A model generated the notes under the pieces. It saw only the letters and a program-made list of their open reading frames with translations, was not told where the DNA came from and ran no database searches. Of a stretch of 64,000 bases of DNA, positions 16,410 to 62,056 are shown one piece after another; positions within the stretch are counted from its first letter, which is position 1, and every line of letters starts with the position of its first letter. A program made the position numbers and the translations under genes. This DNA comes from a bacterium (GTDB taxonomy: Bacteria; Patescibacteriota; Minisyncoccia; Phycocordibacterales; Phycocordibacteraceae). Location of the stretch: contig JAJYHK010000011.1 of NCBI GenBank assembly GCA_021784815.1, forward strand, positions 10,954-74,953, in the 5' to 3' direction.

Positions 16410-18158
16410 CTATTCCGAAACGGCACGGAGCACCTCTTCGACCGAGGTGATGCCGCGCGCCGCTTTGTAGAGGCCGTCTTCAAACATGGTGAGCATGCTC
16501 TCTCTGCGCGCCTGGTCCTCAATAGCATCAGTCGTCATCTGGTGGAGCATGATTTCCTTGATCGCCGGCGATACGGCGAGGACCTCGTGGATGCCAATGC
16601 GGCCCTTGTAGCCGTCCGCGCACTCGGCGGATTCCTTAGGATGATAAAACGGCACGTCATCAATGGCGGTCCCTTTTTTGACGAGCTTCTCTTCGGTGAG
16701 CGCGTTCAGGACCGTATCAAACGATTCTTTTGGGGCGATCTTGTCGCGCTCGCTAGCGTCGAGCGCGTACTGTTCTTTACCATCACAGAATTTACGCACG
16801 AGGCGTTGGCCGACAATGATGCGGATGGTCGACGCGAGGAGGAACGGCTCGACGCCCATATCGATGAGACGCGGAATCGCGCCGGCGGCACTGTTCGTGT
16901 GGATAGTCGAGAGCACGAGGTGGCCGGTGAGTGCGGCGTTGATGGCGAGCGAGGCGGTCTCGTTATCGCGGATTTCGCCGACCATGATGATGTCCGGATC
17001 CTGGCGCACGAGGGAGCGCAGGCCTTCCGCGAAAGTAAAGCCGATCGCGGGATTTACCTGGGTTTGGTTCACGCGCTTCATTTGGTACTCGATCGGATCC
17101 TCGATCGTAGAGATGTTCACGTCGGGAGTATTCACGATGTCCATCATTGTGTAGAGGGTCGTCGTTTTGCCCGAACCGGTCGGCCCCGAAATGAGAATGA
17201 TACCGGTCGTCGTCTTGAGCGCGGCATGGATCCGTTCAAGCGTCTCGCCATGGAAGCCGAGCGCCTCAAGCGTGAAGCCGCCCCCTCCCTCGCGCAAAAG
17301 GCGCATAACGATCTTCTCGCCATAGAAGGTGGGGAGGATGGAAACGCGAAAGGAGACGCGCTCGGCTTCCGTCTCCATCTTGAAGCGGCCGTCTTGCGGC
17401 AGCCGCTTTTCGTCGAGCTTGAGGTCGGAAAGCACCTTAATGCGCGCGACGATCGCCGGAGCCGCGATCTTCGGCAGAGTCATCGCGTCGTGGAGCATGC
17501 CGTCGATGCGGTAGCGTACGAGCACCTGCCCTTCCATGGGCTCAATGTGGACGTCGGAAGCGCCCTGCACGATGGCATGGCGCAGGAGCGAGTCGACAAT
17601 ACGCACGATCGGCAGATCGTCCGCCATTTTCTTGAGATCCTCGTGTGACATCTCTCTGTTCGTTTCGTTCACGACGCGAATCTTGCCCGTCTCAGTTGCG
17701 ATAATATCGCCGAACTCGTCTTTGAGCGATTTTTGGTACTGGAGGAGCGCGACCTTGATGCTCTCGGTATCGGTGAGGCGCGGCTGAATCTTGAGGCCGG
17801 TTTTCTTGCGGACCGAGTCGATCGAGGCGAGATCGTCGACGTCCAGCATGGCGACCTCGAGCGATTCCCCACTTTTTCGAAACGCGATGATGTTGTGCGT
17901 GCGTGCGATCGGTTCGGGGATGAGCACGAGCACATCGGTCGGAATGCGCTGGTCTTTGAGGCTCACGAACGGGATGCCAAGCACATACGCCTGAATACGG
18001 CGCAGCGCGTCCTCGCTCAGGGCGCCTCGATTCACGAGGATGGTGCCCAAGGGCGCGCCGCTCTTTTTCGATTCGGCATCGGCGTCCTCGACGTCCTTGC
18101 GGGAAACGAGTCCCGAGTCAATAATAAATTCTTTGAGCTCCCCCGGTGAAACGTGCAT
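16410..18158 (-). CDS. pilB: type IV pilus assembly ATPase PilB (GspE family)
   Basis: Walker A GPTGSGKTTTLY, Asp box, His box, N-terminal T2SSE_N domain. ATG at 18158 checked. Confidence 0.9.
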   Translation of the reverse strand: MHVSPGELKEFIIDSGLVSRKDVEDADAESKKSGAPLGTILVNRGALSEDALRRIQAYVLGIPFVSLKDQRIPTDVLVLIPEPIARTHNIIAFRKSGESLEVAMLDVDDLASIDSVRKKTGLKIQPRLTDTESIKVALLQYQKSLKDEFGDIIATETGKIRVVNETNREMSHEDLKKMADDLPIVRIVDSLLRHAIVQGASDVHIEPMEGQVLVRYRIDGMLHDAMTLPKIAAPAIVARIKVLSDLKLDEKRLPQDGRFKMETEAERVSFRVSILPTFYGEKIVMRLLREGGGGFTLEALGFHGETLERIHAALKTTTGIILISGPTGSGKTTTLYTMMDIVNTPDVNISTIEDPIEYQMKRVNQTQVNPAIGFTFAEGLRSLVRQDPDIIMVGEIRDNETASLAINAALTGHLVLSTIHTNSAAGAIPRLIDMGVEPFLLASTIRIIVGQRLVRKFCDGKEQYALDASERDKIAPKESFDTVLNALTEEKLVKKGTAIDDVPFYHPKESAECADGYKGRIGIHEVLAVSPAIKEIMLHQMTTDAIEDQARRESMLTMFEDGLYKAARGITSVEEVLRAVSE

Positions 18159-18421
18159 CGTATACGAAGTATACCGAGAGTTACGCGCGGGCACTGTGTA
18201 TGTACACACATTACGCTGCATGCGTGTGAAGGCATGCTAATGAGCGCGTACCAGCCTGTGCGCCACCACCATTGACGAAGCGAGATAATGCTGGTACCTT
18301 GTGGTCAACTGGAAGACCCGCCCCGCGGGCTTTCTTTTACCCAGCACAAAAGAACCGGCGCGTCCGGTTACAATCACAGGAGTGCTGGCTTTATAAAACG
18401 TGCGCCACATACACATCCCAT

Positions 18422-26189: not shown

Positions 26190-26210
26190 TTGCGCAGACC
26201 CCAACCAAAC

Positions 26211-26241
26211 CCCTGCCTCAAGAATCGAGGCAGGGGTTTAT
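26211..26241 (+). terminator. rho-independent terminator (cccctgcctc-aagaatc-gaggcagggg then TTTA)
   Basis: Perfect 10-bp stem. Confidence 0.6.
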
Positions 26242-26687
26242 ATGCCTGCCATACTCAGGCGAGTTTCTCTTATTTAGGGGTATTCCATGAGTATTGAGCA
26301 TCCATCATCACAAGCACCTAAACCCGATCCCTCAGAGAACCAAGATATGAGCTGGATGAATCTGGCCGAGAGAGGTTCAGTTCAAATGTGGAAGTCGTGG
26401 CGAGCGAGATGGAAGTGCGTGCTGCCGGTGCCGCTTCATCTGTGGAGACGGCATGCCCATCGCTGGGGCAGATCCAAGCGGCGGAGGCTACTCTCGAGCA
26501 AAGCCAACAAAGACTAGAGGCCGCACTACGCTCTACGAATCAAACAACGCCGGAACGCAGCGCTACGATACGGGAACGGGTGTAATGAGCATTGGACAAA
26601 AGCAAAGCTGAAGGCGGGCCTGGCCTTCGCGGGTCTCGGAGCGGCTTCACTCGGGGGAGTACCGATTCCCCGCTGAACCCCACTGAC

Positions 26688-26816
26688 CTCGATATACGCA
26701 AGTATGCGAAGTATCTGCTCAAAAACGGCTCCCGAGAGGAGAGGCGCGAGCTGCTCGGGCATCTCCGCAACCGACTCATTCTACTGAAGGACAGAGAAAT
26801 CGCGCCCGCAGATTAG
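26688..26816 (+). pseudogene. 3' fragment of a second large serine recombinase gene (decayed paralog of 28616..29941)
   Basis: Encodes [42 protein letters not shown]; the recombinase C-terminus is [41 protein letters not shown]. About 75% nt identity over about 125 bp. No upstream recombinase domains remain. Confidence 0.6.
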
Positions 26817-26848
26817 CCCGGACAAGTCTCGCAGTTGTGAACTTTTTC

Positions 26849-26889
26849 CGAGGCCTCGCGGTCTAAAATCGGGTCTCTGACTGCTGTGC
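26849..26889 (+). repeat. about 41-bp direct repeat (cgaggcctcgcggtctaaaatcgggtctctgactgctgtgc), copy of the tRNA-Gly-flanking sequence at 30005..30046
   Basis: About 80% identity to 30005-30046. Flanked by 16-bp motif copies (degenerate at 26828, canonical at 26892). Confidence 0.65.
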
Positions 26890-26891
26890 CC

Positions 26892-26907
26892 CCTCGCTGT
26901 TGCGGAC
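26892..26907 (+). repeat. 16-bp motif CCTCGCTGTTGCGGAC, copy 2 of 4
   Basis: Direct repeat family. Confidence 0.7.
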
Positions 26908-27114
26908 TGCACCAAGCGAGGCAACATAAGGGCGGTTTTGGCGCTCGTCGCCTCACCGATTTGACCCCTCGCAGTCATGATCAGAATGGGACATTTGGGA
27001 CACCATTCGCGCATAATAGGACACTGTCCCGTTTATACGATTCTAGCAAGCATTTGCAGGGTATTCCCATGATTCGGAGCGCGGGACGGGCGTCCCGTCC
27101 GTGTCCCAAGCGAG

Positions 27115-27130
27115 CCTCGCAGTTGCGGAC
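27115..27130 (+). repeat. 16-bp motif CCTCGCAGTTGCGGAC, copy 3 of 4
   Basis: Followed by tgttacaaatattacac and tgtaacat/ccgaacacg repeats homologous to 25620-25790. Confidence 0.7.
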
Positions 27131-27592
27131 TGAAATGTTACAAATATTACACGTTTTGAGCACTTTTGGGGTGTAACATTTTGGACAAAATCTGGCTTGG
27201 AGAAAGGATAGATCGCTCGGAAAGGGCTGTAACATTCTGGCTGTCGCGGCCGCAATTCCGAACAATCCGAACACGACAGAGGCCATTCCGAACGTTCGAA
27301 ACGTGTTCGGTTACCAGGAACGCCACTCGAAGACGGTCGTTTAAAATGCCCAAAAATGCCAATTTTCTGACAATCGAGATTGCGAGATGTGTTTCATTCA
27401 TGCGTCAGAAAACGGCGCAAATGCTAGGGATGAGACAAGTGAGACACTTTTACGCGTTTCATTTTGCGTCTCAAAATTGGCATTTTATCGCTATGCCACG
27501 AAGGCACCCCACCGCCCGTCTCGCCCACATCACCCGTGCGGAGCGGATAACGACAAATTGGACAAAAATGAGCACCGGGAGCGAGTGTAACG

Positions 27593-28141
27593 TTATTCAG
27601 GCAATATCATCATATTGCCGTATGGGTCTCCCGGCGTTGCTTCGCCCCAGTTCATGCCCGACCAGCACGCCGGCTGCGCGTACGGAGAATTCGCCGGCCG
27701 CGGTTCTTCGGTGTCCCAATACAAGACCGCGTACGTGCCGCTCGGCGAACCGCAGGTTGCTGGTCCTCCGGTAAAATTTACATAACGGAACGTGCAGCCG
27801 CTGAGCGTCGTCTCAACCGGAACCTGACTTATATAACCTCCTGTCTGCAGCGCAGAGAGCCAACTGTACCCGCTACCAGAATTACCCGATTGCCAATTCC
27901 ACCAGCAGCCGCTGCCGCCTCCCGATTGATTCAAGTACGGATACTGGCCGTTATGATCGTTCGCATACATTTCAAGAGCGGTGCGTATGCTCTGAATGTC
28001 GGAAATGCGCGCCGCATCGCGCGCTTTACTACGCGCGGTACTTAAGCTCGCAAGTATGATGCTTGAGAGAACCCCAATAATCGCAATGACCACCAAGAGT
28101 TCGATTAGGGTAAACCCGCGATACGAACGTGCACGCCTCAT
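27593..28141 (-). CDS. pilA: type IVa major pilin (PilA-like)
   Basis: MRRARSYRG|FTLIELLVVIAIIGVLSSIILASLSTARSKARDAARISDIQSIRTALEMY. ATG at 28141. Cys residues for a C-terminal disulfide are present. Confidence 0.8.
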   Translation of the reverse strand: MRRARSYRGFTLIELLVVIAIIGVLSSIILASLSTARSKARDAARISDIQSIRTALEMYANDHNGQYPYLNQSGGGSGCWWNWQSGNSGSGYSWLSALQTGGYISQVPVETTLSGCTFRYVNFTGGPATCGSPSGTYAVLYWDTEEPRPANSPYAQPACWSGMNWGEATPGDPYGNMMILPE

Positions 28142-28425
28142 TGTGTTTGCTGGCCTGGGATACGATCTGTTTGGGAGAAATTTTTTACGATTTGTCCTGA
28201 CGAAGTACCAAGTAACATCGGCACGGCAAACGCAAGAATGATCGCGCCAACGGCAATGCCAATGAGCACGCGTGTCGCACCCTTTTCGTCCTTCGCCAAT
28301 CCCCATCCGATAACGAGCTTCGCCATGCCGCGGGACTCGCTCGTCACTCCCCGTCGAGGCGTATATTGTTCCTCCTCCTGAAATTGAATGCCACTACCGC
28401 CTGCGCCTAAGTCCATATGCTTCAT
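28138..28425 (-). CDS. hypothetical small membrane protein upstream of pilin
   Basis: 95-aa ORF with one TM helix. Its stop overlaps the pilin start. No clear RBS. Confidence 0.3.
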   Translation of the reverse strand: MKHMDLGAGGSGIQFQEEEQYTPRRGVTSESRGMAKLVIGWGLAKDEKGATRVLIGIAVGAIILAFAVPMLLGTSSGQIVKNFSQTDRIPGQQTQ

Positions 28426-54668: not shown

Positions 54669-55079
54669 ATGGCCACTATCAATCAGCTCACCAACAAGCG
54701 CCGGCGCGACAAGATTCGCAAGACGAAAGTACTTGCGCTCACGCGCGGTTTCAACGCGCTCGAGAACCGGCCGACGTACTACGCTTCGCCGTTTAAGCGC
54801 GGCGTCTGCACCAAGGTGACCACGAAAACCCCTCGCAAACCGAACTCGGCAATCCGCAAGATTGCCCGCGTGCGCCTCACGAACGGCTATGAGGTAACTG
54901 CTTACATCCCGGGCGAGGGCCACAACCTCCAGGAACACTCGGTGGTGCTTTTGCGCGGTGGTCGCGTGAAGGACATCGGCGTCCAATATACGATCGTCCG
55001 CGGCAAGCTCGACACCGCTGGGATCGAGAAGCGCCGTCGCGGCCGCTCGCGCTATGGGGCTAAGAAGCCTAAGGCCTAG
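54669..55079 (+). CDS. rpsL: 30S ribosomal protein S12 (extended variant)
   Basis: MATINQL...[60 protein letters not shown]. Confidence 0.9.
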
Positions 55080-55081
55080 CT

Positions 55082-55543
55082 ATGCGCCGCCCCCTTAAGC
55101 ACAAACGCGTTTGGCGTCCAGACACCCGCTACCAATCGGAGGCCGTGACCCGATTCATTAACGCGGTTATGTGGGACGGAAAGAAGGATACGGCTCGCAA
55201 GATCGTCTACACGGCGTTCGACAAGATCAAAGAGGAGCACGACCCGCTTGAGACGTTTGAGTCGGCTATCCGCAACGTCTCGCCGCTCATGGAGGTGCGC
55301 TCTCGACGCGTCGGTGGGGCCAACTATCAAGTGCCCCGCGAGGTGCCGCAAAAACGCCGCCTCGCCCTCGCGTATCGGTGGATCATCACGAGCGCTCGTT
55401 CGAAGAAGGGCCGCCCGGTGGCTGAGAAGCTCGCCGAAGAGATTCTCCTCGCAAGCAAGAACGAGGGCGATGCGATCAAAAAGAAAGACGAAATGCATCG
55501 CATGGCCGAAGCCAACAAAGCATTCGCCCACTTCGCCTGGTAG
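55082..55543 (+). CDS. rpsG: 30S ribosomal protein S7
   Basis: [27 protein letters not shown]...NYQVPREV...[11 protein letters not shown]. Confidence 0.9.
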
Positions 55544-55768
55544 GAACCCAGAAGTAAACGGCAAAAAACGCTCGGAATACGGGTGTTTTTTCGCCGTTTG
55601 CGCTGCCCGCGCATGCCGCGATTCATGCAGTATGCTTGACAAAAAAACAAGGGCAGGTTAGTTGTGTAGTTGTTGCTCCGTGAGGGGGCACATGTCCTTT
55701 GTGCTCGCTAACGAAAGTAACTCCAGTCCCGCGGAATCCTCCACGGGATATCACAAGGAAGACACGCA

Positions 55769-56134
55769 ATGAGAAACTTGCTCGGAGCCGCTGCGCTCCT
55801 TGCGATCAGTCTGGCCATCACCCCGCCGCCCGCCGCCGCGGGCACGCTCGGCACGCTCTCCTCGAGCTCGCAGGCGTCCGCCAATGGCGGCACCGGCGGG
55901 TTCATGACGCCGTTCGGCTCCTGGTTCGGGCCCGGCAGCGCCGTGACCGGCGACCAGGCGTACGGAAGCGCCACGCTCCTCATGGGGCGTGGCGGCGTGA
56001 GCACCACGACCACCACGGGTACCCAGGGATACGGGTACTCCGGCCTGACCGGCTTCACCACGTTTGGCGGCATGGGCAATGCCAATGCCAATGCCAATGT
56101 GGTGCGCGGGTTCTTCGGATTCCCGCCCTTCTGA
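55769..56134 (+). CDS. small secreted Gly/Thr-rich protein (high-GC island)
   Basis: Signal peptide MRNLLGAAALLAISLAITPPPAAA, NANANA repeat. About 68-70% GC with strong GC3 bias against a host background of about 58-60%. Confidence 0.5.
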   Translation: MRNLLGAAALLAISLAITPPPAAAGTLGTLSSSSQASANGGTGGFMTPFGSWFGPGSAVTGDQAYGSATLLMGRGGVSTTTTTGTQGYGYSGLTGFTTFGGMGNANANANVVRGFFGFPPF

Positions 56135-56227
56135 TCCGCACCGGACTACGTCGACATGGGAGGCGCATCTTCGGATGCGCCTCCTTGCTCGTGTCGGCTC
56201 CCTCGGCAATACCAGGAAGGAACTCAA

Positions 56228-56914
56228 ATGAAGACGATCGTCCGATTTTTGGGCGGTTTCGTGGCGCTTGCCGCGGTAGCCGCCTTCTCGCCTGCTGTCT
56301 ACGCCGGTTCGCTGCAAGCGAACAGCGCAGCCAGCTCCGGTGCCCAGGCAGGCTCGGTGCTGGAAATGAATGCCGCCCCAGGAGTGAACTATAGCGGCGG
56401 CTACATGCTGGGCAACACCCCGGCCGTGATGCCGGGTTCCATCTACACGATGAATCCGTGCAGCAACGGCGCAGCCGTCGGCGGCGCCGGCCCGGGGATC
56501 GGTCTCACCTTCTCGTTCTCCCACGATTCGGATGAGTGCCAACTCCAGAATTGGGCCACGTTCGCCATGCGCGCGTACGCGATGACGCATGATCCGCGCG
56601 ACGAGCAATGGGCTCGCGGCATCATGTGCGCTGCGAACCCGACCGTCTTCAAGACCGCGCCGACTGGCATGTGCCAACCCGAGGCTGGCTCGAAAGCGGT
56701 CGCGGCTGCGGTACCGGCGAGCCCCGTGCCGCCGCCCGTCAAGACGGTGTCCTATCATGGCTCGGTCGTGGCGCTTGACCCCGATGCCCCCGCGTATTGC
56801 CTTCAGGGCGGCGTGGACCCGCGGATCATCCCGGCGTGCGTCGGCGCGCAAGCCGCGAGCGAAGCGTATAAGCAGCTTCATCGCGATCGCGCTGGGAGCA
56901 ACAACGCGGGCTGA
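56228..56914 (+). CDS. secreted Cys-containing hypothetical protein (high-GC island)
   Basis: RBS AGGAAGG, signal peptide MKTIVRFLGGFVALAAVAAFSPAVYA, 8 Cys. Same compositional signature as the neighbouring gene. Confidence 0.5.
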   Translation: MKTIVRFLGGFVALAAVAAFSPAVYAGSLQANSAASSGAQAGSVLEMNAAPGVNYSGGYMLGNTPAVMPGSIYTMNPCSNGAAVGGAGPGIGLTFSFSHDSDECQLQNWATFAMRAYAMTHDPRDEQWARGIMCAANPTVFKTAPTGMCQPEAGSKAVAAAVPASPVPPPVKTVSYHGSVVALDPDAPAYCLQGGVDPRIIPACVGAQAASEAYKQLHRDRAGSNNAG

Positions 56915-56987
56915 TAATCCGCGACCGTGCCTCCACCCCCCGTTTCTGGCTTTCATGCCGGAGCGGGGGTTTTCTTTTGGGAATGTA

Positions 56988-57194
56988 TTAGATACGGGTA
57001 GTAATACCAATCGTATTCTTCCACGTGAGTCGTATAAGATAAATGCCGAACGCAATCTCGGCGAGTATCACTAGGTTTGCCCCGACCATCTCTCCGCTAT
57101 TCCAGTCAAGTAGATAGTACCAGTCGCTCTGATGGAGATATACAAGAAAACCAACGACAACCACTGCAACGATTGAAAACTTCAAATATTTCAT
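56988..57194 (-). CDS. small two-TM membrane protein (transposon passenger)
   Basis: 68-aa ORF in an AT-rich context. Its stop lies within the left IR. Confidence 0.3.
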   Translation of the reverse strand: MKYLKFSIVAVVVVGFLVYLHQSDWYYLLDWNSGEMVGANLVILAEIAFGIYLIRLTWKNTIGITTRI

Positions 57195-57198
57195 AGAA

Positions 57199-57435
57199 CT
57201 ATTCTACTACCACCTCATATTCCTCTTGCGTGTAGTTCGCGTCGCAGTTCCGGCAATGGTAAATGAACTCTGTGCGGGTGATTTTACCTCCTTTGATATC
57301 GGGACCACCCGAGAACTTATCGAGGGACTTCTCTCCGCAATTCGGACATTTTAATGTTTCGCCCGTCCATTTATCCTTAAGCGGGCCAATAGGTTCTCCT
57401 GTCATTCGCGGATTATACCATTCGGCGTTAGGCAA
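57199..57435 (-). CDS. zinc-ribbon small protein (CPNC...HCRNC) (transposon passenger)
   Basis: 78 aa with two CxxC pairs. 8-nt overlap with the upstream 313-aa ORF. Confidence 0.45.
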   Translation of the reverse strand: MPNAEWYNPRMTGEPIGPLKDKWTGETLKCPNCGEKSLDKFSGGPDIKGGKITRTEFIYHCRNCDANYTQEEYEVVVE

Positions 57436-58369
57436 CTTCTCCCGTCTCTCCCGTTTCGGGAAGGTCGAGCATCCTTTGCACGCCGAACGCTCGGGCGAAG
57501 TTCTCCTCGAACTTGCGCCAGTTCGGAGAAATACGCATCAGCGTTGTAACGGAAGCCACAAGCTTATCGAGGTGCGGTATGCCGATCTCCTTCGTCAGAT
57601 AGCGGTGGTGGTGCTTCTCGTAAGTTCCCTTAGAGGTCGCCGTGCCTTCCGTGCGCTTTACGTTCTGCTTCTTTATCTCGTCAATGACGCCTTCCGGCAA
57701 CTGGTCGTAAATGAGCTTCTTCGTGAGATACCCGGCGAACTTCGGGCGCTTGCGGCGCGACTGGGCGTTATACTCCCAACCTTTCAAGCGGAACATTTCC
57801 TGATAGAACTCGTGCGGAAAGCGCATCGTCCACGGCAGGAGTTCCTTCGCGATGTATTTCGAGAGGATAAGTTGCAGTTCTTCCTTTTCACGAACCTCCT
57901 GATAGCCCGTTGCTTCGTCCACGAGAGCGATGATGCCCACGTGGGCAAGCCCGCGCATGATTATCTCGGCCATACGTGCCGTTTCGAGCGCCTTGCCTTT
58001 GAGTACGTTTGCGTCGCGGGCTTGGAGCCATACGTCGCAGATTTCAGGGAGCATGATGGCTGGAATGCCGTTGGTCCTGCCGCCTTTGCCTATATAGGGG
58101 ATAGGGCTACTTGCGCGAGCCAATAAACCCGCAGAAATAAAGGGTCTTAGCGGCTTTAGCTCCAAGAAACGCGGTAGATTTCGCGAGCCGTCCGTATCTA
58201 CGTCCTTACTGCCGCCTTCCGGCCTTGCCAGTGCCTTATTTACGCTTGCCTGCGTGAGCACTCGCGTTCCGTCCTCTAGCACGTAGCACTGGATTTCTAG
58301 GTCTCCGATATGGATGGGGTGGTCCTCCGATCCGTATGCGATTTTCTGCACCTTCTGCGGTTCGTCCAT
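57428..58369 (-). CDS. hypothetical phage-type protein (possibly P63C-domain-like; assignment uncertain) (transposon passenger)
   Basis: 313 aa with a charged C-terminal half. No catalytic motif recognised. Placed 3 nt downstream of the transposase stop. Confidence 0.45.
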   Translation of the reverse strand: MDEPQKVQKIAYGSEDHPIHIGDLEIQCYVLEDGTRVLTQASVNKALARPEGGSKDVDTDGSRNLPRFLELKPLRPFISAGLLARASSPIPYIGKGGRTNGIPAIMLPEICDVWLQARDANVLKGKALETARMAEIIMRGLAHVGIIALVDEATGYQEVREKEELQLILSKYIAKELLPWTMRFPHEFYQEMFRLKGWEYNAQSRRKRPKFAGYLTKKLIYDQLPEGVIDEIKKQNVKRTEGTATSKGTYEKHHHRYLTKEIGIPHLDKLVASVTTLMRISPNWRKFEENFARAFGVQRMLDLPETGETGEVA

Positions 58370-58371
58370 GG

Positions 58372-59238
58372 TTATGCGGTTATTGCGTTTAATATCAGCG
58401 TCTCGAACGCCGCGCCAGCGTCTCTCCGGTTATACCGGAAGCAGAACTCATTGATGTAGGCGTTCAAGTGCTTGTCGCTGATGTGATGGTATTGCCCGTA
58501 AATGCCTCGCTTCAGGAGCGCCCAAAAACCTTCGATGGTATTCGTGTGCGCATTGGCGTCCACATAGTTACCCTTACTGTGTCGAACGATGGAGTGCTTG
58601 TAGTCCTTTTTGCTCGATATGCCGTAGTAGCCGCCCCATTCGTCCGTCATGATGTGCGAGCCATCCTTCACGTTCTCCTTGATGAGCGTGTGGAGGGTTC
58701 TCATGTCCGTGCCCGAAATCTTCCGCGCCTTCACTTTACCGCCCCGTTGGAGCAAGCCCATGACGGCGGTCTTGCCGACAGCGCCCCTACCGAGGTTAGC
58801 CCGCTTCGACTTGTGCTTGTTCTTCTCCTTTCCGCCGATATATGTCTCATCGGCTTCCACGATGCCTTCGAGGAGATCGCCTTGGTCTCTCATGGCCTTT
58901 CGTATTCTCATGAGCATGAGCCAAGCCGTGTTCTTATTCACTTCGATGTCCCGTGCGAGTTGTCGGGCGCTGATACCTTTCTTGGCGTTCAATACGAGCG
59001 CGATGGCAAGAAACCACTTTTGGAGGTCTACCTTACTCTTATGGAAAATCGTTTGAACCGTCCCGCTAAAGGAAGTGTTGCAGGAGTTGCAGTGATATCT
59101 GCTCTCCTTCGGAGCCGGGGTAACTCTCACCGACGAGCAGTATGGGCACTTCGGCTTACCGTTCCATCGCACCACCTCGATGTGCTCTCTGCAGTCCTCT
59201 TGTGTCGGGAACCTCTTATATAGTTGGATAATATTCAT
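58372..59238 (-). CDS. IS1595 family transposase (N-terminal zinc ribbon plus DDE domain)
   Basis: CPYCSS...CNSC zinc ribbon; TDEWGGY...NTIEGFWALLKRGIYGQYHHISDKHLNAYINEFCFRYNRR signature. Confidence 0.9.
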   Translation of the reverse strand: MNIIQLYKRFPTQEDCREHIEVVRWNGKPKCPYCSSVRVTPAPKESRYHCNSCNTSFSGTVQTIFHKSKVDLQKWFLAIALVLNAKKGISARQLARDIEVNKNTAWLMLMRIRKAMRDQGDLLEGIVEADETYIGGKEKNKHKSKRANLGRGAVGKTAVMGLLQRGGKVKARKISGTDMRTLHTLIKENVKDGSHIMTDEWGGYYGISSKKDYKHSIVRHSKGNYVDANAHTNTIEGFWALLKRGIYGQYHHISDKHLNAYINEFCFRYNRRDAGAAFETLILNAITA

Positions 59239-59391
59239 GGTGTTTTACGTCTCTACCTTTATGTAAGGCAGTATAGCACCCCGAAAAAGGTCAACCCCCT
59301 GCTCGCGCCGGGGGCTGTGGATAACCTCTACCTATAACTAATACATTCCCTTTCTTTTGTGTGGCGGAGCGGCAGTTCTCTGACAAATCGT

Positions 59392-59679
59392 CTACGTGTT
59401 CTCCGGCTCGGCGAGCAGGACGCGCCTGCGTTCCTCGTACTCCTCCTTACCGATTTCCCCCTTGGCGAAACGCTCGTTCAAAATCTCAAGTGCTGAAGAG
59501 GTACCGTCGAGGTAGCGGTGCCAGTGGCAGCGGCCGTGCCGCCGGCCGAAGACGAGGCGGAGCAGCCATACGAGTGCCACGACGAGCACGATCGCCCAAA
59601 AGACGTTCCAGAGGACTTCCAATATGCCAAAACCGCCGCCCCAGCCCATGCCCGATCCGTACCCGTAGTGATACATCAT
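59392..59679 (-). CDS. SHOCT-domain membrane protein
   Basis: TM helix plus C-terminal LEILNERFAKGEIGKEEYEERRRVL SHOCT motif. Confidence 0.6.
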   Translation of the reverse strand: MMYHYGYGSGMGWGGGFGILEVLWNVFWAIVLVVALVWLLRLVFGRRHGRCHWHRYLDGTSSALEILNERFAKGEIGKEEYEERRRVLLAEPENT

Positions 59680-59878: not shown

Positions 59879-62056
59879 ATGAAGCGAGACTATCCTCTAG
59901 AAAAAGTGCGTAACTTCGGCATCATTGCCCACATTGATGCGGGTAAGACAACCACGTCCGAGCGCATCCTCTACTACACGGGCATGAGCCATAAAATCGG
60001 CGAGGTGCACGAGGGCGCGACGGTCACCGACTGGATGGAACAGGAGCGCGAGCGCGGCATCACGATCACCGCGGCCGCCATCACCTGCTTCTGGACGCCG
60101 ACCCAAGCGCGCATGGAGGGCGGATCGGTGCAAGCCTCAATGGCACATGACGCTCAGAAACACCGCTTCAACATCATCGACACGCCGGGGCACATCGACT
60201 TCACCGCCGAGGTGCAGCGCTCCATGCGCGTCCTCGACGGCGCCATCACGGTCTTCGACGGCGTATCAGGCGTCGAGCCGCAGTCGGAGACGAACTGGCG
60301 CTATGCCGACGATGCCAATGTGCCGCGCCTGTGCTTCATCAATAAGCTCGACCGCACCGGCGCTTCCTTCGAGGACTCCTATAAGAGCATTCTCGAACGT
60401 CTCTCGCCGAAGGCGGTGCGCATGCAGATCCCGATCGGCGAGGAGAGCGCGCACGAGGGCGTTGTTGATCTGCTCACCATGAAGGCGTACCGCTTCGAAG
60501 GCGCCATGGGCGACCAGGTGATTGAGGGCGAGGTGCCTGCGGATCTCGTCGACACCGCGAAGAAGTACCGCGGCGAGCTCATCGAGCGCATCGTCGAGAA
60601 TGACGAGGCGGCGATGAACGCATACCTCGAGGGCAACGAGCCCCCTCTCGAGGAACTCAAAAAGCTTTTGCGCAAAGCGGTGATCGCCAACGAAGTCTTC
60701 CCGGTGTATTGCGGCAGCGCGCTCAAGAACAAGGGCGTGCAGCTCATACTCGACGCCGTGGTCGACTACCTCCCGAGCCCGCTCGATGTGCCGCCGGTGA
60801 CCGGAATCAATCCGAAGACGGGCGAGGAAATCATGCGCCGCGCGTCCGATGACGAACCGTTCTGCGCGCTCGCCTTCAAGCTCCAGACCGATCCGTTCGT
60901 CGGCTCGCTCACGTTCTTCCGCGTGTACTCGGGCAGCATCGCGGCCGGGTCCTACGTGTACAACTCGACCACGGGCAACAAAGAGCGCATTGGCCGCATC
61001 GTGCGGCTCCAGGCTGACAAGCGCGAAGAAGTCGAGCAGGTTTTCGCAGGTGAAATCGCCGCCGCCGTGGGCCTTAAGGACACCAAGACCTCGCACACGC
61101 TCTGCGACGAGGCGAACCCGATCGTGCTCGAGGAAATCCACTTCCCGGAACCGGTCGTGTCGGTCCGCATCGAGCCGAAGACCAAGGCCGACCAGGAGAA
61201 GATGGGCATTGCGCTCAGGAAGCTTGCGGATGAAGACCCGACCTTCCGGGTGTCCTCCGACGAAGAAACGGGCGAAACAATCATCTCGGGCATGGGCGAG
61301 CTTCATCTTGAGATTCTCGTCGACCGCATGAAGCGCGAGTTTAACGTCGTTGCCGATACGGGTGCGCCGCAGGTGGCGTACCGCGAAACGATCCTCGGCA
61401 ATGCCGACGTCGAAGGCAAGTACATCAAGCAGACCGGCGGCCGCGGCCAGTACGGGCACGTCAAGCTCAAGATCAAGAAGCTCGAGCCGTTGCCGGAAGG
61501 CGAGGACGTCAAGATTGCGAAAAACGTGACGCGCGAGGACCACTTCGAGTTCATTAACAACATAAAAGGAGGCGTCATTCCGCAGGAGTACATCCCGGCG
61601 GTGGAGAAAGGCATCCGCGAGGCGATGGCGCGCGGCGTGCTCGCCGGCTTCCCGATGGTCGATATCTCAGTCGATTTGTACGACGGCTCGTATCACGACG
61701 TGGACTCCTCCGAAGTCGCCTACAAGATCGCAGCCTCGATGGCCTTCCAGGATGGCGTCCAGAAATCGAAACCGGTCTTGCTTGAGCCGATCATGAAGGT
61801 GGAGGTGACCGTGCCGGAGCAGTTCATGGGCGACATTACCGGCAACCTCTCCGGGAAGCGCGGCGCGATCGAGGGCATGGATGATCGCGGCATGAGCAAG
61901 GTCATCCGCGCCAAGGTGCCGCTCAAGGAAATGTTCGGCTACACAACGACCCTGCGAAGCATGACCGAAGGCCGCGGCGCCATGATGATGGAGTTCGACC
62001 ACTATGATGTCGTGCCGACGAACGTGGCGCAGGACATTATCACTGCGCGCAAGTAG
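59879..62056 (+). CDS. fusA: translation elongation factor G
   Basis: [21 protein letters not shown] and full EF-G domains II-V; 725 aa. Confidence 0.95.

Follow-up and report, generated by a model that had tools for sequence, protein, structure and literature searches.

Phage 'moron' cassettes (Juhala/Hendrix), reviewed by Cumby, Davidson and Maxwell (2012, PMC3594210), are among the described systems that come closest to the locus considered here, together with compositional genomic islands, the insertion sequence (IS) elements of the IS1595 family, and the subunit/accessory operons in which two genes are separated by a stem-loop. The locus is a pair of genes, orfA and orfB, placed between rpsL-rpsG (54669-55543) and fusA (59879-62056) in a stretch of 64,000 nucleotides of contig JAJYHK010000011.1, referred to throughout as the window. 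The host is an uncultured member of Candidatus Kaiserbacteria / Paceibacterota (Patescibacteria, or Candidate Phyla Radiation, CPR), its ribosomal protein S7 being 74-82% identical to those of metagenome-assembled genomes (MAGs) of Kaiserbacteria, Paceibacterota and Minisyncoccia. The genes rpsL, rpsG and fusA normally form the contiguous str operon. Here the spacer measures 4.3 kb, and the order is rpsL-rpsG, the orfA-orfB pair, an IS, a SHOCT-domain gene and fusA. As regards the IS1595 family, most members are about 1 kb long, groups carrying passenger genes exist, and the target repeat has a size of 8 bp.

An earlier note on this DNA had taken the interval 55700-56930 for a compositionally foreign island, recently acquired from a high-GC donor and lying next to an IS. 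The analysis argues for an older, ameliorated or well-adapted acquisition rather than for a recent high-GC donor. As a whole, we consider it quite probable that the locus represents a compact two-gene unit with its own terminator, adapted to its host, which was an old mobile module and beside which an IS was inserted later; the cassette is thus probably an old, moron-like, horizontally mobile module, now host-adapted. The old accessory origin is proposed because the pair is absent from the corresponding spacers of 72 relatives and because homologous pairs are found on phage or prophage contigs.

The orfA-orfB cassette

The cassette, and the hairpin that precedes it, comprise the following features.
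55549..55605, + strand: strong terminator-like hairpin with A-run/U-run, just 3' of rpsG (-35 kcal/mol, z -3.8, 0 of 200 shuffles as stable)
55769..56134, + strand: orfA, predicted exported protein of 121 aa, rich in Gly, Thr, Ser and Ala, almost uncharged, with the C-terminus ...FGFPPF
56077..56099, + strand: hexanucleotide repeat (CAATGC)x3.8 encoding NANANA, detected by TRF and shorter in the sister variant L003
56159..56184 (extended stem 56150-56198), + strand: intercistronic hairpin with an 11-bp perfect GC-rich stem and a UUCG loop (-42 kcal/mol, z -3.7)
56228..56914, + strand: orfB, predicted exported protein of 228 aa with a Sec signal peptide and 6 Cys (70 relatives by phmmer)
56937..56978, + strand: intrinsic terminator of the cassette (stem 56937-56969, U-tract 56970-56978), from fold and sequence

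Both genes are preceded by ribosome-binding-site-like AGGA/GGAAG motifs, and both translations begin with typical Sec signal peptides, which read MRNLLGAAALLAISLAITPPPAAA in orfA and MKTIVRFLGGFVALAAVAAFSPAVYA in orfB, each followed by G. The earlier note was therefore right about two signal-peptide proteins, as it was in calling the first Gly/Thr-rich with a NANANA repeat: the 121 residues of OrfA include 25 Gly, 16 Ala, 16 Thr and 11 Ser, with 1 acidic and 3 basic residues, and no internal repeats were found in it besides the NANANA hexamer. The second had been described as a Cys-rich protein of 229 aa; its length is 228 aa (42 Ala, 25 Gly, 19 Pro and 6 Cys among them), and it is mildly Cys-rich, with 2.6% Cys against a background of 0.8%.

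OrfA gave no match in Pfam, NCBIfam, PHROG or the PDB, and neither a Curlin repeat nor any other Pfam match appeared at E values up to 1. In a word-indexed search of 5.8 billion proteins it matched one 63%-identical variant, and OrfB matched only itself. The AlphaFold2 (AF2) model of OrfA, built from two sequences, had a predicted local distance difference test score (pLDDT) of 42, being unreliable and unusable. Several identities were considered for this protein and rejected. CPR cells are described as having no outer membrane, and on this ground an outer-membrane beta-barrel, prompted by the C-terminal aromatic residue, was discarded; a type IV pilin was rejected for want of a class III signal, a lipoprotein for want of a lipobox, and a CsgA-like curli or functional amyloid subunit since there are neither Curlin nor Q/N-type repeats, nor csgEFG-type genes nearby.

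Exhaustive phmmer searching retrieved 70 relatives of OrfB, most of them of 160-270 aa, which have in common a signal peptide, a linker of low complexity (Ser/Ala/Gly) and the core motif NPC..G.S.G....G.G...G...C..R.W. In the alignment, C78 and C104 are invariant and C134 and C149 nearly so, the two C-terminal Cys being absent from the conserved columns listed, and no hydrophobic segment can be read after the signal peptide. The AF2 model of OrfB (pLDDT 73, with 10-residue blocks above 90 from 101 to 150) found no structural match in the PDB. In BFVD it matched uncharacterised phage proteins (probability 0.98-1.0, best E 2e-4, TM-score about 0.3), including A0A0K2FIE8 of Achromobacter phage phiAxp-2; the top nine matches measure 132-315 aa, most of them 160-210, with 11-22% identity in the structure alignments. 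Neither OrfB nor its aligned relatives matched Pfam, NCBIfam, PADLOC or, by sequence, the PDB. PHROG 20531, a family of unknown function, was matched by 14 of the 37 aligned relatives (best E 1e-22), and OrfB itself had no PHROG match at E 1e-3; the connection to this family is thus transitive only. Moreover, when plasmids and INPHARED phages were searched by tblastn with OrfB and four of its relatives, only a marginal match in Ralstonia phage RSP15 (E 0.04) was returned, and IMG/VR scans with OrfB and with the P63C-domain protein of the adjacent IS found no relatives.

The hairpin 3' of rpsG would act as a terminator. The intercistronic hairpin is identical in L003 despite the divergence of orfA there. 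Beyond the window, each of the six homologous pairs tested (L003, L006, L009, L091, L095 and L097), the phage-borne ones included, also has a GC-rich stem-loop between its genes, so that the structure is kept without likeness of sequence. No exact copy of the hairpin turned up in JGI metagenomes, and an Rfam scan of 54.4-60 kb matched no RNA family. On the 3' side, the terminator stem 56937-56969 is followed by UUUUCUUUU, and an equivalent terminator stands 3' of the orfB homologue in L010, before fusA.

The arrangement has been recovered repeatedly. A second assembly (an ENA contig of 84.5 kb, with loci L001 and L005) agrees with the window at 99.9% identity where the two overlap, and two short contigs from other samples (L002 and L004) match it at 100% identity over the junction of rpsG, orfA and orfB; the gene order is therefore not an assembly artefact. 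A search with hidden Markov models (HMMs) found no paralogue of either gene elsewhere in the window, family scans found no phage genes around the pair outside the IS, and no integrase, tRNA, direct-repeat boundary or other bracketing repeat was found around it.

Related pairs in bacteria and phages

The orfB homologues compared here are only 30-45% identical. In every context with upstream sequence, a signal-peptide gene of 109-154 aa precedes the orfB homologue, and its product is Gly/Ser/Thr/Asn-rich and nearly uncharged, with a C-terminal Phe or Trp, in all those compared by sequence (L003, L006, L007/8, L009, L091, L095, L097/8 and L100); in L099 a 109-aa ORF holds the upstream position. 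The surroundings of these pairs are disparate. On bacterial chromosomes, the pair comes directly after the ATP-synthase operon (L006) or between a DNA glycosylase (HhH-GPD) gene and RNase J (L091), and in L010 an orfB homologue of 45% identity lies directly upstream of fusA, with a terminator after it and no IS. Three contigs are of phage or prophage type: L095 carries DUF3987 (primase/helicase-type), an NrS1-like polymerase domain, AAA_24 and DUF669; L097/L098 carries ERF, YqaJ, RusA, DUF968, Lar and a GH19 lysin; and in L099 the pair is followed directly by a tail-fibre gene, with an integrase on its upstream side. In L100 (2-976 of JGI VFSW01224918.1) the pair is preceded by a divergent IS30-like transposase gene with an HTH_38 domain. 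L100 is also a second case of an IS beside the cassette.

Comparison of window 55769-56514 with L003 21-773 gave 60% amino-acid identity for orfA (dN 0.32, dS 0.50, dN/dS 0.64), and 95% for the first 95 codons of orfB (dN 0.034, dS 0.22, dN/dS 0.16), a contrast of rates by which the first gene is hypervariable and the second conserved. The pair is a conserved cassette, composed of an exported Gly/Ser-rich protein ending in F or W, a GC-rich hairpin and a 6-Cys exported protein. In a wider sense it constitutes a paired exported-protein family common to CPR-type bacteria and phages, with a gene-hairpin-gene layout, unequal rates and no functional annotation.

The rpsG-fusA spacer was followed in 72 related genomes, whose S7 is 61-82% identical to that of the window, none of them being closer than species level, and for which 14-kb loci were searched. 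Its length varies between 35 and 5918 bp, with a median of about 547, measuring at most 150 bp in 18 genomes and more than 1 kb in 24, and its cargo is heterogeneous and unrelated across the 72. By HMM search, homologues of orfA or orfB were found in 0 of the 72 relatives, anywhere in the 14-kb loci. In L010 the first 22 aa of elongation factor G (EF-G) are identical to those of the window and the DNA is 83% identical; the block just upstream of fusA looks common to both by eye, BLASTN having aligned the coding start only. In this clade rpsG and fusA are probably transcribed separately, and the spacer may be a permissive landing zone for accessory genes and IS; such a zone seems to be tolerated across Kaiserbacteria and Paceibacteria.

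Among the other occupants of the spacer, in the window and in the relatives, the following were observed. One further gene lies there in the window.
59392..59679, - strand: SHOCT-domain membrane protein of 95 aa, outside the IS (Pfam SHOCT, E 2e-9)
This additional accessory gene of the spacer is convergent with orfB, and tblastn did not find its product in the loci of the relatives. The spacer cargo of loci L011-L090 includes pilin-like ORFs with prepilin motifs, a PIN-like ORF and enzyme-sized ORFs, as seen from N-terminal sequences only. In Kaiserbacteria and Paceibacteria this spacer is thus a hot spot of variation.

These comparisons bear on an alternative origin, in which the pair would be a lineage-specific possession of the Kaiserbacteria clade, inherited vertically, with the phage copies as captures from bacteria and no horizontal arrival at this site. 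Codon usage that is fully host-like (see below), the same position upstream of fusA in the organism of L010 and the purifying selection acting on both genes agree with it; the pair is missing, however, both at the site and in the whole 14-kb loci of the 72 related genomes, the contexts of its homologues differ from one another (after the atp operon, between HhH-GPD and RNase J, and on three contigs of phage or prophage type), and in L100 it has an IS30-like transposase gene beside it. Vertical descent is on balance rather unlikely, and the old mobile module is preferred.

As to what such a module might do, the intercistronic hairpin would keep the orfA:orfB ratio high. OrfA, an uncharged protein of low complexity, would be made in abundance, diversify fast and end up on the envelope or outside it, with OrfB as its scarcer, probably disulfide-stabilised, extracytoplasmic partner; phages may use such a pair for remodelling or masking the cell surface. 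A fuller version of this proposal, to which we give a rather low probability, would make the pair an undescribed, phage-disseminated, two-component extracellular system, in which an abundant, rapidly diversifying, uncharged Gly/Ser-aromatic coat or fibre protein and a disulfide-stabilised partner remodel or mask the host surface (e.g. for superinfection exclusion), later domesticated by episymbiotic CPR bacteria and highly expressed beside the translation genes.

The main functional rival, which no result discriminates from the surface-remodelling model, would see in OrfA a Sec-dependent Gly-rich bacteriocin and in OrfB a secreted immunity or maturation partner. The analogy is suggested by a protein that is small, rich in Gly, Ser, Thr and Ala, almost uncharged and quick to diversify between strains. 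Gly-rich microcins and class II bacteriocins are of a composition like that of OrfA, and a hairpin between the structural and the downstream gene is common in bacteriocin operons. Against it, the pair matched no bacteriocin, immunity or ABC-exporter family, OrfB has no hydrophobic segment past its signal peptide (most immunity proteins being membrane proteins), and positions in phage early regions or beside a tail-fibre gene are untypical of bacteriocin loci. A bacteriocin function thus appears unlikely.

Base composition, codon usage and the IS1595-family element

Composition was compared with the 47 well-supported genes of the window, among them the flanking genes.
54669..55079, + strand: rpsL, ribosomal protein S12, left flank (Pfam Ribosom_S12_S23), GC3 0.79
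55082..55543, + strand: rpsG, ribosomal protein S7, left flank (Pfam Ribosomal_S7), GC3 0.75
59879..62056, + strand: fusA, EF-G, right flank (Pfam GTP_EFTU/EFG domains), GC3 0.84, top codon adaptation index (CAI) of the window

The interval 55700-56930 has 65.9% GC against 58.4% window-wide (+2.2 standard deviations, SD) and is the GC-richest 1231-bp stretch of the window, a value that just 0.14% of the windows of this length attain; three native stretches (at 40.4, 62.2 and 6.9 kb) come close, with 65.0-65.4%. The overall GC content is 68.9-69.4% in orfA and 66.2-66.5% in orfB. When it is divided among the three codon positions (GC1/GC2/GC3), the values are 0.55/0.66/0.86 for orfA and 0.64/0.57/0.78 for orfB, compared with 0.57/0.47/0.79 for rpsL, 0.60/0.42/0.75 for rpsG and 0.61/0.38/0.84 for fusA. 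The unusual position of the pair is therefore GC2 (0.66 and 0.57 versus about 0.42 typically), and the excess falls mainly there because both proteins abound in Gly, Ala, Pro, Thr and Ser, amino acids with codons that are GC-rich at positions 1 and 2, position 2 being set by the amino acids.

The synonymous choices are those of the host. Across the 47 genes GC3 has a mean of 0.709 (SD 0.062), and orfB ranks sixth and orfA first, only 0.025 above fusA. Given the amino acids, the synonymous-codon fit of the pair is above average (z +1.7 and +2.1; rpsL +2.5, rpsG +1.7), and its preferences coincide with those of the host (GGC>>GGG, GCC~GCG, ACC~ACG, CCG>CCC, GTG>GTC, CTC, CGC). The ratio C3/(C3+G3) is 0.58 in the pair, 0.61 in rpsL, rpsG and fusA and 0.56 in the remaining genes, and the CAI, calculated with these three genes as reference, places orfB sixth and orfA tenth of 47. 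Furthermore, back-translation with window-average codons predicts a GC content of 65.4% for orfA and 64.6% for orfB, and with the codons of rpsL, rpsG and fusA 69.0% and 67.9%, the observed values being 69.4% and 66.5%. Amino-acid composition accounts for about 63-76% of the GC excess of the pair and host-type codon bias for the rest, and by no test run on this window is its composition foreign.

The local GC peak described by the earlier note is hence real, and the IS next door does belong to the IS1595 family; the foreignness of codon usage and composition that it read into the interval was overstated, since the GC3 values of 0.86 and 0.78 stand beside 0.79, 0.75 and 0.84 in the flanking genes and within the distribution of the window genes, an outcome that the note itself had named as refuting its reading, and the CAI is host-like. 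Of the recent horizontal acquisition from a high-GC donor, the accessory, horizontal part is plausible, and the recency and the donor do not withstand these results.

Of the five other loci measured, four (L006, L091, L095 and L099) again show a GC offset against their neighbours, for example 0.65 versus 0.56 in L006 and 0.59 versus 0.51 in L095; in L097 it is small or absent (0.617 and 0.650 versus 0.62 in the flanks). Amino-acid composition covers 39-82% of the offset at those loci, with a residual enrichment of GC3 in most pairs. The encoded proteins, together with selection on codon bias, explain the recurrence better than would a series of recent imports, which are disfavoured because the homologues sharing the offset are only 30-45% identical.

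The IS was delimited by its ends and by the duplication of its target.
56971..56978, no strand: 8-bp target-site duplication TTTCTTTT, left copy, from sequence and repeats
56979..59350, - strand: IS1595-family element of 2372 bp with 23-nt inverted repeats and four ORFs on this strand (DDE_Tnp_IS1595 and NF033547)
56988-57194, - strand: passenger, transmembrane protein of 68 aa, an ORF of the IS1595 element
57199-57405, - strand: passenger, Zn-ribbon protein of 68 aa, with 90%-cluster mates in Minisyncoccia MAGs
57428-58369, - strand: passenger, P63C-domain protein of 313 aa (P63C E 1e-28; phrog_2384 E 5e-94)
58372-59238, - strand: IS1595 transposase (PF12762, DDE_Tnp_IS1595, E 8e-43; PF12760 E 4e-8; NF033547 E 4e-65)
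59351..59358, no strand: 8-bp target-site duplication TTTCTTTT, right copy, from sequence

The inverted repeats (56979-57001 and 59328-59350, 23 nt) are 87% complementary, and their 13-nt tips GGGAATGTATTAG occur exactly twice in the window, so that the limits of this IS1595-family element, with its three passenger genes, are clear. As its target the element used, and duplicated, the U-tract of the intrinsic terminator of orfB, whose uninterrupted site before the insertion would read ...GGAGCGGGGGTTTTCTTTTGTGTGGCGGAGC... The inverted repeats and the target duplication leave out orfA and orfB. Therefore, the IS was inserted after the cassette, did not carry the pair and is an independent, later insertion. 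The IS block, to the right of the pair, is encoded on the minus strand and has a lower GC content, and its genes are atypical in codon usage (z -3.2 for the P63C gene and -3.4 for the transposase; CAI ranks 32-33 of 47). The Logan contig L002 stops exactly at 56979, a break which fits a repeated or polymorphic element.

A recent island from a high-GC donor, brought by or with the adjacent IS, would have in its favour that the pair occupies the highest-GC 1.2 kb of the window, with orfA at the top in GC3 and an IS beside it, that it is absent from the spacer of the 72 relatives and that it is a near-orphan among 5.8 billion proteins. Nevertheless, GC3 lies within the range of the flanks, synonymous choice and CAI are host-like and the excess is in GC2; the IS boundaries exclude the pair; the sister strains have diverged in it to a dS of 0.2-0.5; a more distant relative (L010) has an orfB homologue upstream of fusA without an IS; and the same GC offset appears in hosts of differing GC content. 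This explanation is accordingly very unlikely, and a general caution can be drawn from it: a GC peak with high GC3 beside an IS mimics recent horizontal gene transfer, an appearance that dissolves when GC is split by codon position and compared with highly expressed neighbours. Finally, that orfA and orfB are chance ORFs has practically no probability left: GC-rich DNA yields long spurious ORFs and an antisense ORF of 434 aa (55751-57055, the longest in the region) is indeed present as an alternative, but the reading is refuted by the conservation of the pair, with homologues that keep the Cys and motifs and with dN/dS below 1, and it is the + strand that has the signal peptides, the ribosome-binding sites and the signature of GC3 above GC1 and GC2, a self-trained codon model choosing its two ORFs, so that the antisense ORF is a GC-rich artefact.

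Other parts of the window deserve a brief description. Between 48347 and 54597, upstream of rpsL, there are four large secreted or membrane proteins (356, 555, 820 and 342 aa) with no Pfam family. Those of 820 and 342 aa are syntenic upstream of rpsL in most Kaiserbacteria relatives, at 24-47% identity, and of all genes in the window that for the 820-aa protein deviates most in codon usage (z -6.3), with a weak match to a transmembrane protein family of integrative and conjugative elements. At 26200-27600 there are about 1.4 kb with no convincing ORF or Rfam match, adjoined by a type IV pilin-like gene with a GFTLIELLVV motif (27593-28306, - strand); the surrounding 25-37 kb are lower in GC and hold four tRNA genes. 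A secretion ATPase of the PilB/T2SSE type is encoded at 16410-18221 (E 5e-125), and its gene is one of the best adapted in codon usage (CAI rank 7), which fits an actively used type IV pilus system in this CPR genome.

Weight of the evidence and known systems

Several points weigh against the old, host-adapted module as we read it. No sigma-70-like promoter was predicted on the + strand in 55544-55768, by a method that covers organisms with promoters of this type, and a TTGACA at 55637 has no good -10 behind it; the pair is thus only putatively independent in its transcription. As regards composition, orfA tops all 47 genes in GC3 (0.86) and in GC at four-fold sites (0.91), in several other hosts the GC3 of the pair is 2-5 SD above the prediction from flank codons, and the reference distribution is drawn from 64 kb of the genome only. 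With only 349 codons, a donor of similar codon preferences and higher GC, such as another Kaiserbacteria lineage or a phage, is hard to exclude fully, since the preferred codons here end in G or C and a donor of this kind would escape the codon tests. The findings answer no long-standing question.

With compositional genomic islands the locus shares a local GC maximum, absence from relatives and an IS nearby; unlike them, it shows host-like codon usage and GC3, IS boundaries that exclude the pair, and no integrase, tRNA or direct-repeat boundary. The mobile element itself has the DDE_Tnp_IS1595 transposase with an N-terminal Zn ribbon, the terminal inverted repeats and the 8-bp target duplication of the IS1595 family (ISfinder), and differs in its length of 2.4 kb with three passenger ORFs. 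No relationship of sequence or fold to pilins, curlins or known bacteriocins was found for the pair. The likeness to the phage proteins of PHROG 20531 and BFVD lies in the match of 14 of 37 orfB relatives and in a similar protein size, orfB itself missing the profile. A further resemblance, drawn by analogy, is that to fimbrial and bacteriocin operons with an intercistronic stem-loop, which would have in common with the pair a small gene of an abundant type, a stable hairpin, a larger partner gene and an order kept across hosts.

From phage morons the present site differs in being chromosomal, between rpsG and fusA, with no prophage and no promoter identified, and in that the GC difference arises from amino-acid composition and host codon bias and not from foreign origin. 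In common with them, the cassette is a short accessory unit between conserved genes, with a GC content unlike that of its neighbours and its own terminator, and the homologous pairs are add-ons in the early or recombination regions of phages and prophages, one of them beside a tail-fibre gene.

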